DNA of 64,000 nt, taken from an uncultured Cytophagia bacterium. Lineage in GTDB: Bacteria; Zhuqueibacterota; Zhuqueibacteria; Oleimicrobiales; Geothermoviventaceae. The stretch spans positions 153,838 to 217,837 of the forward strand of contig CAZXXS010000097.1 of the NCBI GenBank assembly GCA_964644845.1, written 5' to 3'. The position numbers were made by a program, and so were the translations under genes. The notes below the pieces were generated by a model that was given only the letters and a program-made list of their open reading frames with translations, made no database searches and was not told where the DNA came from. Below, in pieces: positions 1,532 through 36,400 of this stretch; position 1 is the stretch's first letter, and each line of letters begins with the position of its first letter.

Positions 1532-2249
1532 GGGTAACTTCCTCCGTGTTTGTCGTTCGCAGTGTTGAATCCGTTGTGGCTGCCGTTTCGTTGGCGACCA
1601 GGTTCTTCAGAAATTGGATGCCAAACGCGAGCCCCCGCCGCATTTCTGGAGTCCTGAACTCTTTGAAAAGGCGCCGGTACGAGATTTCCTCGTCCACGCT
1701 GATGGTGAGGTTCTTGTACACGGAAACGGCGTTGTTGATGGTTTCCAGCATGTCTGGCTGCGTGAGATTGCGGACGGTTGTTAGGATGGTAACGATGTTC
1801 TCACCCAAAAGCCGTACGTCTTCGACAGTGAAGGCGGTAACCACTTTGTCCAGCACTTTCGCGAGTTCGCTGAAAAAAGCGAAGTAGCCCTTCCGGTCAA
1901 GTTCGTCCAGTGTGGCCAGAAGATCGAAGAAGGCGTCCCGTGCGATTGGTTTCGCATCCTGCAGGAAGTCGTTGGCGCTTTCCAGCTGGTCCAAGGTGCG
2001 CGCGAGATTCCGCACATTACGAAGCAGCTTCTTGCCAAGGTGCCACAGATCAGACGCGTCGAAATGATGGGCTACCTCGTCAAGCTCAACTACAGCGGTT
2101 AGGAACATGTCTGTAACAACGCGGCTGAGGTCTTCCTTCAACTCCTGTGCTTCGCGTTCGCGCCTTCGTTGCAGAGCCAGCTGTTCGGTGACGAAGTCGA
2201 GCTTTCGGTTGATTTCTGCCAGCTGTTTCTCGAGACCGTTTCCACTCAT
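1521..2249 (-). CDS. DUF1641 domain protein
   Basis: 242-aa protein with the composition and pattern of DUF1641. It overlaps the downstream TusE start by 11 nt and the upstream SQR stop by 4 nt, so it sits in the operon. Confidence 0.6.
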   Translation of the reverse strand: MSGNGLEKQLAEINRKLDFVTEQLALQRRREREAQELKEDLSRVVTDMFLTAVVELDEVAHHFDASDLWHLGKKLLRNVRNLARTLDQLESANDFLQDAKPIARDAFFDLLATLDELDRKGYFAFFSELAKVLDKVVTAFTVEDVRLLGENIVTILTTVRNLTQPDMLETINNAVSVYKNLTISVDEEISYRRLFKEFRTPEMRRGLAFGIQFLKNLVANETAATTDSTLRTTNTEEVTHAS

Positions 2250-3481
2250 GCTACCCGCCTCTTTCCTGCCATGTTCATCTGCGCCTCGATCGGTAACTCT
2301 GCACCTTTGAGCAGCAGGTTCCAGTACATCCAGCGGAACATCATCTTGCCCCAGTGATTCATCTTTGTCTCCTCAAGAAGCGAGAAGGGACCGATTCCCG
2401 GTAGGGGAAACTTTCCCGGCAAAGGTTCGACATCGTAGTTGAAATCAATCAGAATGCCTTTCCCGAAACCGGACTCGATGAAACAGTTAGCATGCCCGTC
2501 GAACTTGGGCAGGAGCGGACGTTTGTCGATGGCTCGCAGAATGTTTTCGAACAGTACCTCGGACTCGAAATGGGCCACAGAACCCGCTTTCGAGCTGGGC
2601 AAGTCTGTGGCATCCCCGAGCACGAAAACGTTTTCGTAGTTCTTCGCCTGTAGGGTGTGCTTGTCGGTCGGGATGAAATTCAGCTCATCACCCATTCCCG
2701 AGCGCGCAATCACCTCGTCGCCCATGTTCGTCGGGATGGGTACGAGTAAATCGTATTCGATTTCTTGCTCGTCGTAGGAGATGATTTTCTGCTTGTCCGG
2801 ATCTACGCGTTCAACGTTGAAATCCGGTACCAGCCGGATGTTCTTTTTTTCAAGGAAGTTGCCCAAGAACTTCGACGCCAACGGTTTTGTGAAAGCGCCC
2901 GGGAGCGGCGTAACGAAAATGATCTCCACTTTGTCGCGAATGCCCTGTTCGGTGAACCACCAGTCGGCCAGAAACACGAATTCCAGGGGCGCCACTGGAC
3001 ACTTGATGGGCATTTCCACAATGTTCAACACCATTCGCCCGCCTTCCCAGTACTTTAGGAAATTGGCGAGACTTGTTGCCCCATCGATCGTGTAGAAGTC
3101 GAAGATGTTCTGTCTCCAGCCCCCTTCCAGCATCCCTGGTGTTTCCTCGGGGTGAATTTTGGAACCGGTGGAGATGATCAAATAGTCGTACTCCAACGTT
3201 TTGCCGTTCTCGAGCTTTACTCGACTTTTCTCTGGCTCGATGACTTCGATGCCGGACATTTCCACATTCACACCAGCGGGTAAAAAGTCACGCTTGGGCT
3301 TGATGACGTCGTTCCGGTTGTAAATGCCGAAGGGGATGAAGAGAAAGCCGGGCTGGTAGTAGTGGACCTCCTCTTGATCCACGATGGTAATGTCCCATTC
3401 GAGTGGATCAAGAACAGGCCTCAACTTATTGGCCATGATGGTGCCGCCAGTGCCAGCTCCGAGAATCAGAAGCTTCTTCAT
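2246..3481 (-). CDS. sqr: sulfide:quinone oxidoreductase-like FAD-dependent pyridine nucleotide-disulfide oxidoreductase
   Basis: 411 aa. N-terminal MKKLLILGAGTGG Rossmann motif, conserved cysteine context IKCPVAPLEF and C-terminal cap domain typical of the SQR/FCSD family. GAGGAGAG RBS. Confidence 0.75.
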   Translation of the reverse strand: MKKLLILGAGTGGTIMANKLRPVLDPLEWDITIVDQEEVHYYQPGFLFIPFGIYNRNDVIKPKRDFLPAGVNVEMSGIEVIEPEKSRVKLENGKTLEYDYLIISTGSKIHPEETPGMLEGGWRQNIFDFYTIDGATSLANFLKYWEGGRMVLNIVEMPIKCPVAPLEFVFLADWWFTEQGIRDKVEIIFVTPLPGAFTKPLASKFLGNFLEKKNIRLVPDFNVERVDPDKQKIISYDEQEIEYDLLVPIPTNMGDEVIARSGMGDELNFIPTDKHTLQAKNYENVFVLGDATDLPSSKAGSVAHFESEVLFENILRAIDKRPLLPKFDGHANCFIESGFGKGILIDFNYDVEPLPGKFPLPGIGPFSLLEETKMNHWGKMMFRWMYWNLLLKGAELPIEAQMNMAGKRRVA

Positions 3482-4143
3482 CGTTGTTTCTCTCCTCGTA
3501 ATTCTTTGTCCGACAAAATCTTGCGTTGTTTGTTCCTGGACCTCTCGCCCAGCACCGAAGTGACATCCCTATTGTGTCATGTCTTGTACGCCGAGCCGCC
3601 TGCCGAGCTGGGCGATCTAAAGCAAATGCTCTGCGTTCGCGCTCGGGCTCGCCTGGCTCAGGATGTTGCTGTTCTTGTGTTTGAGGCGTGCAGTCGGTTG
3701 CCACCGATTGAAGCCTTTCACGGGCGAGGCAATCTTGCTGTTCACCCGAACCCGAACGGGCAAAAGTTAGTAAATAGAAGCAACAATTGCAACTAAAATC
3801 AGATGCGCACAGCAATACTAACCAGTAGCACGTAGTGTTGTTGTTAAGAACCCACGAAAGAGAATGCGAGAATCGGAAGATGCCTGCTTTTCTGTTGACG
3901 TTTGTTGACGCCCGAGCGAAATGGCTCTCACTTGCGGGCTGGTGGCGTGGCCAGGTTAGGAGCCCCCTGAGGCCGCTATTTTTCCCGTGTGGATCCAGAG
4001 TTTGGCTAAGCAGGGTGAAAAAGGCTTTGTAGCAGCTCTATTTTTGAACTCGCCCTGGCAGCTTTGCGCCGGAAATGGCTCTGAACTTCACTTCCTGGGT
4101 CGTTTGGAGACTTCCCAAAATTCCCTCGGCTCTTTTCGTAGCC

Positions 4144-4212
4144 AAACCGCCTTCGGACGGCGGTTTTTTGACGTAACGCGGGGATTGGATCCCCGGGCGA
4201 AGGGGCGTCTCC
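4144..4212 (+). repeat. 69-nt direct repeat copy R1: intrinsic-terminator-like hairpin (AAACCGCC-ttcggac-GGCGGTTTTTT) plus second hairpin CGGGGAT-tgg-ATCCCCG
   Basis: Read directly from the sequence. About 91% identical to the copy at 4598..4666. Confidence 0.8.
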
Positions 4213-4450
4213 GATTCCCATTTAGCCGCAGAGAGAGGCATCTCCGAATCCCCATTCATCCCCGCATCTCCTTCACCGACTACGAGATCGTGCGGAGAAA
4301 ATCGCAAGGCGACCCAGGCATCGAACGCTGAGGGGTACGAGGTGACGCGACATTGCTGGCGGCGGTCTGGATTCGCGAGCGTTTTTTGGCGCAGCAGAAT
4401 GAGTGCGGCTGCTGTTTTGCGCGTCCATCTTCGCGGGCGCGCTTGGTACG

Positions 4451-4505
4451 CCGGGGACTGAAGTCCCCGGCTGCGTCAGGTGGAAACCGGCTGAAGCCGG
4501 TTTTG
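4451..4505 (+). repeat. related double-hairpin unit (CCGGGGA-ctgaag-TCCCCGG then AAACCGG-ctgaag-CCGGTTTT)
   Basis: Same two stem types as R1/R2 but in the opposite order. Both loops are CTGAAG. Confidence 0.7.
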
Positions 4506-4597
4506 CTTGGGGTGTACTTTGCAGCTCAGCGCGGAGGCCGTCTTCTGGTCGTGCGAGGTTTCGGTTCTCCCCGTGAGGTGATGCATTTGCCGCGGGG

Positions 4598-4666
4598 AAA
4601 CCGCCTTCAGGCGGCGGTTTTTTGACGTAGCCCGGGGACTGGATCCCCGGGCGAAGGGGTGTCTCC
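4598..4666 (+). repeat. 69-nt direct repeat copy R2 (terminator-like hairpin plus GGATCC-containing hairpin)
   Basis: Aligns to 4144..4212 with 6 mismatches in 69. Confidence 0.8.
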
Positions 4667-4929
4667 AAATGCGCATTTGTTCCCCCATCTCCTCTCAGTG
4701 CAGCCAAATTTCGGGGTCTACCGTGCCGGGATTCCGGGCGTGCGAAGAAGCGGTTTTCACGTAACGCTGGTTGTGTTTCTTCTGCGGCGGAATGAACTCC
4801 GCCGTTGGAGAACTTGTCGTGCTCTTCGGCGAATGTGTTTGCGAAAGTGGTACTCAGGCGGTGGTTTTTTGCCTGCCTGGTGGTAAGTGGTTCCCCTGGG
4901 CCCGGGCTGAAAGGCTGAGGCAGGTCGGT

Positions 4930-5415
4930 TTAGGAGGTTTCTCCAGAGTGTTTTTCGGCATGGTCGGCCAAATGTTCGTCGGACCACAGTTCCATGGCGT
5001 GGATGAGATCCTCGAACGTGTCGACCACGGTCCCCAGAGATGGATTTTGGAGCAAGGCGAGGATCTGGCGGTGCATTTCGTCGTACTCGCGCGTCATTTC
5101 GGCGGCCAGCTTCCGGCCCTTCGGGGTCAGGTTTACAATCTTGAACCGTCGGTCGTCCTCTGGTTCGTGGCGTTCAACGAGTCCTTTTTTGCGCAGGTCT
5201 TCCACAATGCGGGTCAGGCGTGCCGGACTAAGGTTCATGAGCTCCGCAAGGTGCCTGATGGGTGAATTGCCCTCCTTCCACAGCGTGCGAAGACACCGGA
5301 ACTCGGCGACACGCAGTCCGTAACGTGCCGCGAAGTGCACCTGTCGCTCCTGGCATAGTTCGTAAAGACGCAGAACGAGATCAGACATGCGGGAGGCGTA
5401 ATCCTCGGTCATCAA
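4930..5415 (-). CDS. MarR-family transcriptional regulator
   Basis: 161 aa with a winged-helix MarR pattern (…LTPKGRKLAAEMTREYDE…). GGAGGA RBS. Confidence 0.8.
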   Translation of the reverse strand: MMTEDYASRMSDLVLRLYELCQERQVHFAARYGLRVAEFRCLRTLWKEGNSPIRHLAELMNLSPARLTRIVEDLRKKGLVERHEPEDDRRFKIVNLTPKGRKLAAEMTREYDEMHRQILALLQNPSLGTVVDTFEDLIHAMELWSDEHLADHAEKHSGETS

Positions 5416-33441: not shown

Positions 33442-36400
33442 ATGCTGAAATTGCGAAAATGTCTGCTGACTGGCGCGACGGGGCTGCTTTTCCTGGCACT
33501 CGGGTTTTCTGGGTATGCTGGCACGGCTCCCCGCAATCTGGCAAAAGACCTGTCTGAAGATCTCAAGAACGCCAGAACGGAGCGACAGCTGGTGCAAGTC
33601 GTGCAGCGGGTTCAGACGTACCAACAGGAGCAAGAAGCTCGAGTTCAGGCAGCGTTGAAAGGGGTGCGGGCTAAGCAGGCGTTACTTCAAACGGCACGAA
33701 AGGCGATTTCTCCAGATGTACGCGTCCGTGCGGCGGTGCTGGCTGTCCGCGGGATGCTCCAGAGAGGGCAGAGTGTCGGCCTGGAAATTGAAAAAGCTCG
33801 AAAGGCCTACGGTGTCGCCGATGTGGCTGGGCGGGGTACAATCTCGGGCAAAGTGACGGTGGCCGGAGAGGCTCCGGAGGGCGACGTCGAGGTGGTGGCG
33901 TTTGATACGCTTGGGTACGTGGCGGATGTTGCACGCGTTGGCCCGCGAAACGCCAGGTACGTTTTGACAGTTCCCCCGGGCCGCTACTACCTGATGACGG
34001 TGAGCACGGGGTACGTCGACGAGATGTACGACGACATCCCGGCCCCCTTTGGCTCGAAAGAAGGGTGGCGTGCGGCAACTCTGGTGACTGTGAATGCTGC
34101 CGAACAGGTTGGGGACATCGATTTCGATCTGGACGTTGGCGCTACGATCACTGGGAAAATCTTCGACTCCGATGGGTACCCACTGGCGGGTACAACCGTT
34201 TCGTTTCAGCTTACCAGTGTGCAGAGTCCGATCTCGCTGCTCGAGTACGAAACCTGGACGGATGACGCCACTGGTGAGTACCGAATCCACGTGCCTGCGG
34301 CGGGTCAGTACAAACTGGCGGCCAGCTGCGATGGTTACGCGCAGGTGTGGTACGACCAGAAAGACACGTGGGAAGAGGCGGACACGCTTCTGGTACCGTC
34401 TGCGGATGCTACGGTGGCTGGCATCGACTTTTCCCTGCCGTTTCAGGGTGGAGAAGGGATTGGCTTGCCCTCAGCGAGTGAGGGTGGTGCGATCTCTGGT
34501 GTGGTGAAAGGACCAGGCGGACTGTTCCCCGTGATCGCTGCTCTGACGGTGGCTTTCGATCTGGCCGACAGTTCGGTGGCCGGATTCGGCATGTCCATGC
34601 TCGGGAATCCGTACGTGATCGGAGGCCTCCAAGACGGAGAGTACCTTGTTTACGCTGACGACATTCTGGGTGACATCCTGGGGGTCGGGAACTACGTTGG
34701 GGAATTCTACGACGACGCACAAACTCCAGACCAGGCTACCCCGGTCCAAGTGAGCAACAGCGACACAACTTTCGGGATCGATTTCGAACTGGACAAGGGA
34801 GGTAAGATTGAGGGGACTGTCACGGGACCTTCTGGGGAGCCGCTGGATTCTGTCCTTGTTGTGGTAGCCGATGCGGGAATCCTGGATGCCGCGGACGACC
34901 CGTTTTTGACCCACGTCCGACTCGGTGTTACTTTGACAGATGATGCCGGGAAATTCTCACTCTCCGGCCTTCGGACGGGTGACTACGTACTCCGGACACT
35001 GACTGTGGTCAAGCACGTCGGCGAAGTGCTGGACGAGTACTGGGACGGACACCACAGCATCTGGGATTTCCGGGAGGCGGATGTTGTGCACGTTCAGGCG
35101 CCTCGTAAGGTCTCTGGAATCAACTTCACCTTGGATGCAGGCGGGAGTGTGCAGGGGCACGTGTACGGAAGCGACGGCACTACCCCAGTCCCCGCAACAA
35201 CAATTCTGGCGCTAAACGCTGACTCGAATCTGCCGGAATTCGCGTACGGCGAAGCGGGAACGGACGGGGCCTACACGTTGGCTCCTCTGCCTTCCGGTGA
35301 CTACAAGTTGCTGGCTATCTCGGCTGACGACAAACACCTGTCTGAGTTCTACGACGGCGCCTACCGACTCGAGGATGCCAACCTCGTTCATGTGGACGCT
35401 CCTAACGCCACCGACGGGATCGATTTCACCTTGAACGAAGGTAGTGTGATTCGCGGCTTTGTTCACCTGCCGGACGGTCTGCCCGTTGGAGCGGACACGA
35501 CCTACCGTTTTCCGGTTGTGGCTTACGACGCCAACACCGGGTTAATGGTGGACTACGCGTACGTGCAGTTTCCCGGTGGGTTCCGAATCAGTAAGCTGCT
35601 GCCGGGCCAGTACAAAGTTGCTGCGCTTCCGATTCTGTACGGCTACGCGGTGACCTACGTGGGTGGTGGCGACTCGTTTGACGACGAGGCAACTGGGACA
35701 GTGAACGTTGGCCCCGGCGCGGCAGTAGATGTAAGCATTACCCTGGAGCAGGGCTCAGGCTCGATTGCAGGCACAGTAACTGAGCAAGGCACCGGTGAAC
35801 CCCTCGACTTTGCTGTCGTCATGGCCTACGACGTTACTGGGCACGCCGCGGGCTTCGGTCTGGTTGGCGCGGATCCGGAACGCATGGTGCCGAGCAATCA
35901 GCCCGGGCAGTACACCATTCGCGGCTTGCGGCCCGGCAGCTACTACGTGCGGACATTCGCTTTTACGCACGTTTTCCCTCAAGTCTCTTCGATCGATCTC
36001 GAAAACTTTGAGTTCGATCTCAGTGGAGGAGAGCTTCCGTTTTTGTCGGGTGCGAACGGCAATTTCGGACTTTTCAATCTGTACCAGGACGAGTGGTACA
36101 ACAACGTGCCTGTCGAGAATTCGAAGATCACCCTGGAGACCCTGTACACGACGATTCTGGCTTTTGTGCGTCACGGTTTCGCCGAGGACTACGAGGATGA
36201 CCTGATTCCGTTCTACCTGCCGCTGCCGTTCCAGGACACACCTGTACCAGGCGCTTCGGCCGTAGTCGTTGAGGAGGGCGGTACGGCAACGGCAGATTTT
36301 GCTCTGGCTGGTGCCACCGTCCAACAAGTCACGGCCGTGGAAGGCGAAAGGACACCCATGCCTTCGAAATTTAAGTTGTCGCAAGCCTACCCGAACCCCT

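Follow-up and report, generated by a model that had tools for sequence, protein, structure and literature searches.

The sqr-marR spacer and its genes

The window analysed here is a 64,000-nucleotide stretch of contig CAZXXS010000097.1 (assembly GCA_964644845.1), from an uncultured Calditrichota bacterium, and our subject is the long spacer between its sulfide-oxidation genes (sqr being the nearest) and marR, which an earlier note on the sequence had described as an island, free of open reading frames (ORFs), of repeated terminator-like hairpin modules. The spacer holds a palindromic repeat, present as one complete element, a solo arm and decayed fragments. [quoted passage not shown] The locus is composed as follows.

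2246-3481, minus strand: sqr (Pyr_redox_2/FCSD), then DUF1641, DsrC/TusE and DsrE genes
3482-4929: spacer (1448 nt), sqr on one side and marR on the other
4930-5412 (or 5415), minus strand: marR, preceded by a UPF0182 gene

Several related sequences were compared with the window. Its SQR protein is 98% identical to that of the metagenome-assembled genome (MAG) "Calditrichota bacterium M_MaxBin.061", whose sqr-marR locus (L004) represents a sister species. Contigs of GCA_054028295.1, ERZ27262694 and JGI 3300028908 are ~99% identical to the window over the common stretch. Strain contigs L001 and L002 were aligned with the window over 3400-4815; L002 is the sqr-side contig of the ERZ27262694 sample, and L095 its marR-side contig. 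A second locus, between a STAS gene and icd, is represented by JGI metagenome contig L084, with two units (L084a and L084b), by L088, which is host sequence at this locus including ~14 kb beyond it, and by L085 from the sister species, whose STAS protein is 93% identical to the host's.

The 69-nt direct repeat that the earlier note had placed at 4144-4212 and 4598-4666 was confirmed at 91% identity, far beyond chance: each half-pattern matched exactly twice in the 64 kb, against 0.00 matches expected from shuffles, and no other substantial repeat is present in the whole window. The pattern AAACCG-N(4-14)-CGGTTT occurred three times in the window, all within the sqr-marR spacer. The hairpins described earlier all fold stably, namely the two terminator-like hairpins T1 and T3 (-11.9 and -14.4 kcal/mol), those at 4484-4503 (-13.4 kcal/mol) and 4450-4471 (-22.5 kcal/mol), and the two with an embedded GGATCC (-13.2 and -20.5 kcal/mol); the two similar loops reported for a third unit were found as CTGAAG/TGAA. 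Hairpins and T-runs thus stand where at least three terminators within about 500 nt had been claimed, but their density is that of chance, a generic terminator scan of 3300-5200 giving 3 sites vs. 2.9 expected, with T3 the only one that belongs to the repeat family (T1 escaped the scan, since the longest stem takes in its T-run). What stands out is therefore the repeat and not terminator density.

Anatomy of the element

The third unit, thought earlier to reuse the same stems in reverse order, does contain those stems, but is more than this: it is the 69-nt module in inverted form. Aligned locally with the reverse complement of 4598-4650, 4451-4503 scored 37 over ~55 nt, while shuffles scored 13.4 +/- 2.0 with a maximum of 19. 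A covariance model (R1), built from nine arms (alignment A5) and run without filters over the window, found exactly three arms, all at this one locus: 4592-4669 (plus strand, 90.3 bits), 4138-4215 (plus, 88.1 bits) and 4432-4509 (minus, 56.6 bits). Since the third unit is the reverse complement of the module, 4446-4666 is, as read from its sequence, one complete element of ~220 nt, with a left arm, a centre of ~90 nt and a right arm; the complete element in L088 is of like size. Each arm of ~55 nt consists of an AAACCG...CGGTTT hairpin flanked by A and T runs and a 7-9-bp GC hairpin, on whose inner side lies an unpaired TGACGYAG, i.e. a GTAG-type tag. The parts recognized in the spacer are these.

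3982-4046, no strand assigned: candidate very decayed left arm of U1, including GTGTGGATCCAG; a weak assignment from a 16-nt inverted match (I11) and its position in alignment A1
4144-4212, plus: right arm, solo (U1), from the 69-nt repeat, folding and R1 (88.1 bits)
4144-4166, plus: hairpin T1 of U1, terminator-like, with T-run 4164-4169
4173-4176, plus: tag GTAA of U1
4179-4195, plus: GC hairpin of U1, CGGGGAT-TGG-ATCCCCG, then tail GCGAAGGGGCGTCTCC
4248-4277, plus: C-rich CATCTCC box downstream of the right arm, 83% identical to L084 2120-2091, which has the equivalent position after the second-locus right arm
4446-4505, minus: left arm of the complete element, the right arm in inverted form (R1, 56.6 bits)
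4450-4471: GC hairpin of the left arm, GCCGGGGAC-TGAA-GTCCCCGGC
4471-4478: CTGCGTCA in the left arm, reverse complement of the TGACGYAG tag
4484-4503: hairpin of the left arm, AAACCGGC-TGAA-GCCGGTTT
4506-4597, plus: centre of the element, its 5' part (4506-4540) kept in the second-locus copy
4541-4595, plus: strain-variable patch in the centre, holding a hairpin with a 15-nt loop
4598-4666, plus: right arm of the complete element (U2; R1, 90.3 bits at 4592-4669)
4598-4620, plus: hairpin T3 of U2, terminator-like, with T-run 4618-4623
4627-4630, plus: tag GTAG of U2
4631-4651, plus: GC hairpin of U2, CCCGGGGA-CTGGA-TCCCCGGG, then tail GCGAAGGGGTGTCTCC
4684-4693, plus: shorter CATCTCC box after U2
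4750-4770, plus: decayed right-arm fragment GCGGTTTTCACGTAACGCTGG, keeping the T-stem 3' half, T-run and tag, without the GC hairpin (repeat families D5 and D7)
4777-4812, plus: strong hairpin (-22.1 kcal/mol), part of a larger reiterated unit; L084 1979-1960, between the two units of the second locus, matches its core 4784-4803 at 85% identity
4854-4871, plus: decayed right-arm fragment TCAGGCGGTGGTTTTTTG, keeping the loop, T-stem 3' half and T-run, 94% identical to 4607-4624

No significant left arm was found upstream of U1 by the arm alignment test, and the candidate at 3982-4046 was detected neither by this test nor by R1. With six T each in T1 and T3 and four in the 4484-4503 hairpin, these have the anatomy of intrinsic terminators. 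In the register CCGCC-TTCA-GGCGG, pairing of the T hairpin is kept through double changes in 5 of 8 pairs, for example CCTGC/GCAGG in L085 and CCGCCGC/GCGGCGG in L084b; the GC hairpin showed no double changes across copies. Such covariation would fit a hairpin in RNA or one in single-stranded DNA alike. The tags, known from only ~9 copies, were GTAG (U2), GTAA (U1, L084a and L001), GTGG (L004), CTAG (L085) and GCAG (the left arm, reversed), in agreement with the degenerate forms listed in PMC3733652.

The term ORF-free needs qualification, for ORFs of up to 144 aa do overlap the spacer; nevertheless their frame is not conserved between copies, and the two searched that overlap the repeats, 3987-4331 (plus) and 4273-4707 (minus), have no Pfam match. 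We give very little credence to the idea that the 69-nt modules encode the conserved N-terminal part of minus-strand small proteins, for which the strain-variable patch would supply a variable C-terminal part. It is true that minus-strand ORFs of 55 and 70 aa (4088-4255 and 4476-4688, each after GGAG-ATG) start just downstream of GAAGGAGATG-like sequences, and that at the second locus gene callers placed ORFs of 107-168 aa on the same strand. Besides the missing Pfam matches, however, tblastx similarity between the paralogues is spread over every frame and interrupted by stops and frame changes; the window and L084 read through the conserved module in different frames (manual translation); four of the six differences between the window copies are non-synonymous (manual count); and indels between copies are not multiples of three.

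Copies at other loci and in relatives

The earlier note had proposed a search for copies elsewhere, and two further loci have them, one in the same MAG and one in a sister species. When JGI metagenomes were scanned with a degenerate 23-mer, a single contig, L084, was returned, with the order STAS gene, two units, icd. Its first unit is homologous to the window element (211 nt, 69%) and to U1 (79 nt, 82%), and the two host loci are collinear, each reading arm, centre, arm, CATCTCC box, hairpin, arm. The earlier statement that only the hairpins are conserved between copies thus applies within the window but not between loci, where the full element, ~210 nt, is homologous. The STAS-icd locus lies on contigs of GCA_054028295.1 and ERZ27262694, assemblies that also carry the sqr locus, and the family is thus multi-locus within one genome, at the level of the MAG.

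Presence at each locus varies between the species. The STAS-icd spacer measures 1043 nt with two units in the host vs. 307 nt with no unit in L085; L085 has a unit downstream of a DUF362 gene, where the host is without one; and the sqr-marR spacer of L004 has only a remnant hairpin and TGACGTAG motifs. Across two sister Calditrichota species the family thus occupies three or more intergenic loci, each showing gain or loss. Among 1.38 Mb of SQR and STAS neighbourhoods from 80+ FCB-group genomes there were no copies except the L004 remnant and the L085 unit, both from the sister species, and the ~14 kb of extra host sequence at the second locus (L088) contained no further copy.

This distribution bears on whether the spacer could result purely from local tandem duplication of one terminator region followed by decay, without dispersal or function of its own. 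Within the window the family is indeed confined to the sqr-marR spacer, and neighbouring arms homogenise by gene conversion (see below). We nonetheless hold a purely local origin to be very improbable: it is contradicted by the homologous units found in the same MAG at an unlinked locus and in the sister species at a third, and both direct and inverted arms are present.

Two further observations concern the neighbourhoods of the second and third loci. The host has N6_N4 methyltransferase and RE_MjaI genes between icd and obg (L088 13072-15004), both absent in L085. MjaI-type enzymes cut CTAG, and the tag is CTAG in the L085 repeat copy but GTAG or GTAA in host copies; any link to RE_MjaI may be coincidence. 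Downstream of DUF362, two tRNA-like genes (read by eye) follow TTGACT-17-TATATT (L085 12110-12370 and L088 18650-18910); together with the icd promoter given below, this indicates that the organism uses canonical sigma-70 hexamers.

The host and L004 sqr-marR spacers cannot be aligned except for a 73-nt box around GCAACAATTGCAAC, 3763-3835 in the window, which is the sole spacer part kept in the sister species (81% identity). This box holds GCAAC-AATT-GCAAC, and its minus strand reads TTGCAA-17 nt-TAACTT; an exact 14-mer from it occurs in the host and L004 only, among 92 loci compared. It is probably the sqr promoter, an operator or both, and possibly a MarR site; as promoter it would give sqr a 5' untranslated region of ~280 nt. 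Elsewhere in the window, a 37-nt segment occurs three times at 34113-35451, ~650 nt apart and with 70% identity, and looks like a repeated domain within a large coding region.

Strain variation and assembly breaks

Over 3400-4815 the window shows no difference from L001 and L002 before 4204 and scattered differences after it, with the exception of one patch: the 55 nt at 4541-4595 are replaced throughout, and beyond them more differences extend across the right arm as far as 4688. In the ERZ27262694 sample the marR-side contig (L095) has the window's version of the patch and the sqr-side contig (L002) the other, so that both occur in one sample. For 46 nt the U2 right arm of L001 matches the U1 arm exactly, and in L002 and L097 it is a mosaic. 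These patterns in the aligned strains point to gene conversion, between neighbouring arms and between strains, which would account for arms that remain 91-96% alike amid decaying flanks. No donor for the patch turned up in any sequence compared, implying at least one further family member. Inversion was rejected as the source of the patch, the L001 version not being the reverse complement of the window version. Nor is the second locus hypervariable, as five strains showed only 14 scattered differences there.

All eight short-read contigs, from four independent data sets (NCBI MAG, ENA, JGI and Logan), end within the spacer, at 4199, 4806 and 4815 on the sqr side and at 4428, 4625, 4670, 4689 and 4784 on the marR side. 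We attribute this systematic assembly breakpoint to the repeats together with the two coexisting alleles. The two patch versions might instead be not alleles but parts of an extra tandem copy of a ~390-nt unit, collapsed into one in the window assembly, and the breaks themselves would agree with this, as would the division of the two versions between the sqr-side and marR-side contigs of ERZ27262694, which overlap by ~380 nt and yet were not merged. We regard a collapsed copy as improbable, because each version is bordered on either side by sequence identical to single-copy window sequence and the simplest graph is a two-strain bubble closing at 4688/4689; in any case it would touch the copy number and leave the nature of the element unchanged.

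A bolder interpretation of the patch is a mobile terminator cassette with an actively diversified centre, which, if transcribed, would yield a small RNA (sRNA) in which gene conversion from silent paralogues exchanges the variable hairpin. Its basis is that one population has at least two unrelated versions of the 55-nt patch just upstream of the terminator, with identical flanks and mosaic right arms. We consider it a long shot; if true, it would mean cassette switching for a non-coding RNA, on a new REPIN-like family, in a phylum without such elements described.

Evidence for and against sRNA genes

The other explanation offered by the earlier note, tandem sRNA genes sharing a terminator, is weakened by the lack of a promoter and of a conserved transcribed body. 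In its present form it would be a small multi-copy family of trans-acting sRNA genes on the plus strand, with a transcript running from ~4506-4540 via the variable hairpin, a possible seed, to the terminator at 4598-4623, and likewise one over ~4050-4169, the inverted left arm merely insulating it from upstream transcription. The good intrinsic-terminator anatomy (six U), the retention of the T-run in most copies and the covariation of the T stem would suit such genes, as would the hairpin with a semi-conserved 15-nt loop (AGGYG..GCAY.T.C) shared by the window, L001 and L084a, whose stem sequences differ. TGGGGTGTACTTTGCA at 4508-4523 also has sigma-54 spacing. Our promoter scans, which covered sigma-70-like and sigma-54-like types, nonetheless found no sigma-70-like promoter in 3300-5200 or within the second array, while the same scan recovered the icd promoter, TTGACT-17-TAACAT. 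The 4508-4523 site was rejected as a sigma-54 promoter on two grounds: sigma-54-like sites in the window are at chance (12 vs. 10.9 expected), and the equivalent site in the paralogous copy L084a differs in its GG-to-GC spacing (by inspection of alignment A1). In addition the body is not conserved in the sister species, the L085 copy has lost its T-run, inverted arms and solo arms are unexpected for an sRNA gene, and no Rfam family was matched at threshold. On balance we find sRNA genes unlikely, though by no means negligible as an explanation and the strongest of the competing ones.

The Rfam search of the whole window gave no family at its gathering threshold and, at permissive E-values, only sub-threshold matches of chance level (Acido-Lenti-1, RNAI and rnk leader). 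The hairpin at 4451-4481 does have the CC..G..CUGA.G..C..GGCU of the first hairpin of the Acido-Lenti-1 motif (RF01687; PMC2864571), but membership was rejected, its score being 22.6 bits vs. a gathering score of 37 and the model's 19-nt second part being missing. In agreement with the earlier note, which matched the repeat to no described element, it has no counterpart in Rfam or in the REP and MITE literature compared.

Comparison with known repeat families

The closest resemblance is to GTAG-tagged REPs and their REPIN or BIME dimers (PMC3733652, PMC3337134, PMC3333891), mobilised by RAYT/TnpA-REP (REP-associated tyrosine transposase). The spacer repeats are likewise extragenic, GC-rich palindromes with short loops, have stems within the 6-13 bp of REPs (7-9 bp at 4179-4195, 4450-4471 and 4631-4651) and apparently bear an unpaired GTAG-like tag at one end (GTAG, GTAA or GTGG; PMC3733652). 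As in a dimer, the arms 4451-4503 and 4598-4650 are inverted, with tags pointing inward (tail-to-tail) and a variable spacer between them. A and T runs beside the hairpins, the want of a target duplication and a distribution that varies among close relatives are further likenesses, as is the reiteration of units together with flanking DNA and variable spacers, described for REP clusters (PMC3733652, PMC3337134). The differences are that the family in the spacer is apparently low-copy, that its arm is composite, joining a terminator-like hairpin to a tagged one, that its tagged hairpins stand ~160 nt apart vs. the usual 20-100 bp of REP dimers, that its right arm has a conserved tail, GCGRAGGGGYGTCTCC, which the left arm is without, and that no RAYT gene was seen in the sequence examined.

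Bacterial MITEs (Correia/NEMIS, ERIC/IRU and RU-1/2/3; PMC3184786, PMC10969869) are similar in size (~220 nt), in being non-coding and intergenic, in their long imperfect terminal inverted repeats with internal hairpins, and in their dispersal as filled and empty sites in relatives (here three loci and two sister species). They differ in that the element has no target-site duplication and no known parent insertion sequence with matching ends, and most copies here are solo right arms rather than whole elements.

Within the same phylum, Caldithrix abyssi has a REP-like 18-nt palindrome, aAACCGTTgaAACGGTTt, with 38 exact copies that are intergenic, lie mostly downstream of genes and are reported as not part of larger repeats (PMC5317091). 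It shares with the 4484-4503 and T hairpins the outer arms AAACCG/CGGTTT and a central GA/TGAA, and is likewise intergenic and low-copy; in the spacer, by contrast, the hairpins sit within an element of ~220 nt. Its core nAACCGTTnnAACGGTTn has no match in the window at up to two mismatches, only the outer arms AAACCG/CGGTTT being common, and the resemblance could be one of generic terminator-like sequence. The core AACCGTTNNAACGGTT was noted with 0-1 mismatch in three other FCB-group loci, including one from a Marinimicrobia MAG (L013 13165-13180, L045 4668-4683 and L065 5103-5118). Judging from these matches, the core of the REP-like palindrome may occur beyond C. abyssi.

A probable dispersed palindromic repeat of the REP or MITE kind

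The REP/MITE reading offered by the earlier note is supported by copies at three or more intergenic loci with gain and loss, inverted arms round a variable centre, solo arms and fragments piled up side by side, and the GTAG-type tag; the element's lack of coding capacity, promoter and target duplication also favours it. The family itself looks to be previously undescribed, the REP/MITE kind being already known. Spread would be at the DNA level, the most plausible agent being a tyrosine HUH transposase (RAYT/IS200-like), or another transposase, encoded elsewhere and acting in trans on single-strand hairpins, a mode that leaves no target duplication. Copies would then accumulate side by side, be homogenised by gene conversion and decay. 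Each arm, with its GC hairpin and T-run, probably terminates transcription on the T-run strand and weakly on the other, which would insulate neighbouring operons; the predicted role as terminator or insulator is consistent with the second and third loci, where the terminator lies 3' of a same-strand gene (downstream of STAS and DUF362).

Several results count against placing the spacer in this class. Copy number is apparently low, with three arms in 64 kb at one locus and one metagenome contig matched, while classical REPs number >100 per genome according to PMC2817692; a stricter 20-mer gave 0 matches among GTDB species representatives and the 23-mer 0 among viral contigs. A tblastn search with E. 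coli RayT, of low sensitivity, found no RAYT in the window and the other loci compared (best E-value 0.22), and the wide separation of the tagged hairpins is unusual for a REP dimer. To the left of the complete element lies GCTTGGTACG and to the right GCGAAGGGG, and these flanks share no direct repeat that would indicate a target-site duplication, which speaks against a classical MITE in particular. Filled and empty spacers of the sister species are too diverged to align at the insertion boundaries; mobility is deduced from the distribution of copies. Finally, the T-runs in the window lie opposite to both flanking genes, leaving no obvious transcript for them to stop.

Significance

A repeat cluster of this kind accounts for the long gap without a credible gene and for the systematic assembly break in these Calditrichota MAGs, and it carries a caution for annotation, since gene callers place spurious ORFs of 55-170 aa over the repeats. 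For bacterial genomes none of this is unexpected, and the analysis demonstrates no new mechanism. What the family does add to the small catalogue of REPs and MITEs outside Proteobacteria is a composite repeat, in which a terminator-like hairpin and a GTAG-tagged one are joined, and if its arms truly terminate transcription it would be a case in which a repeat carries terminators with it as it spreads.

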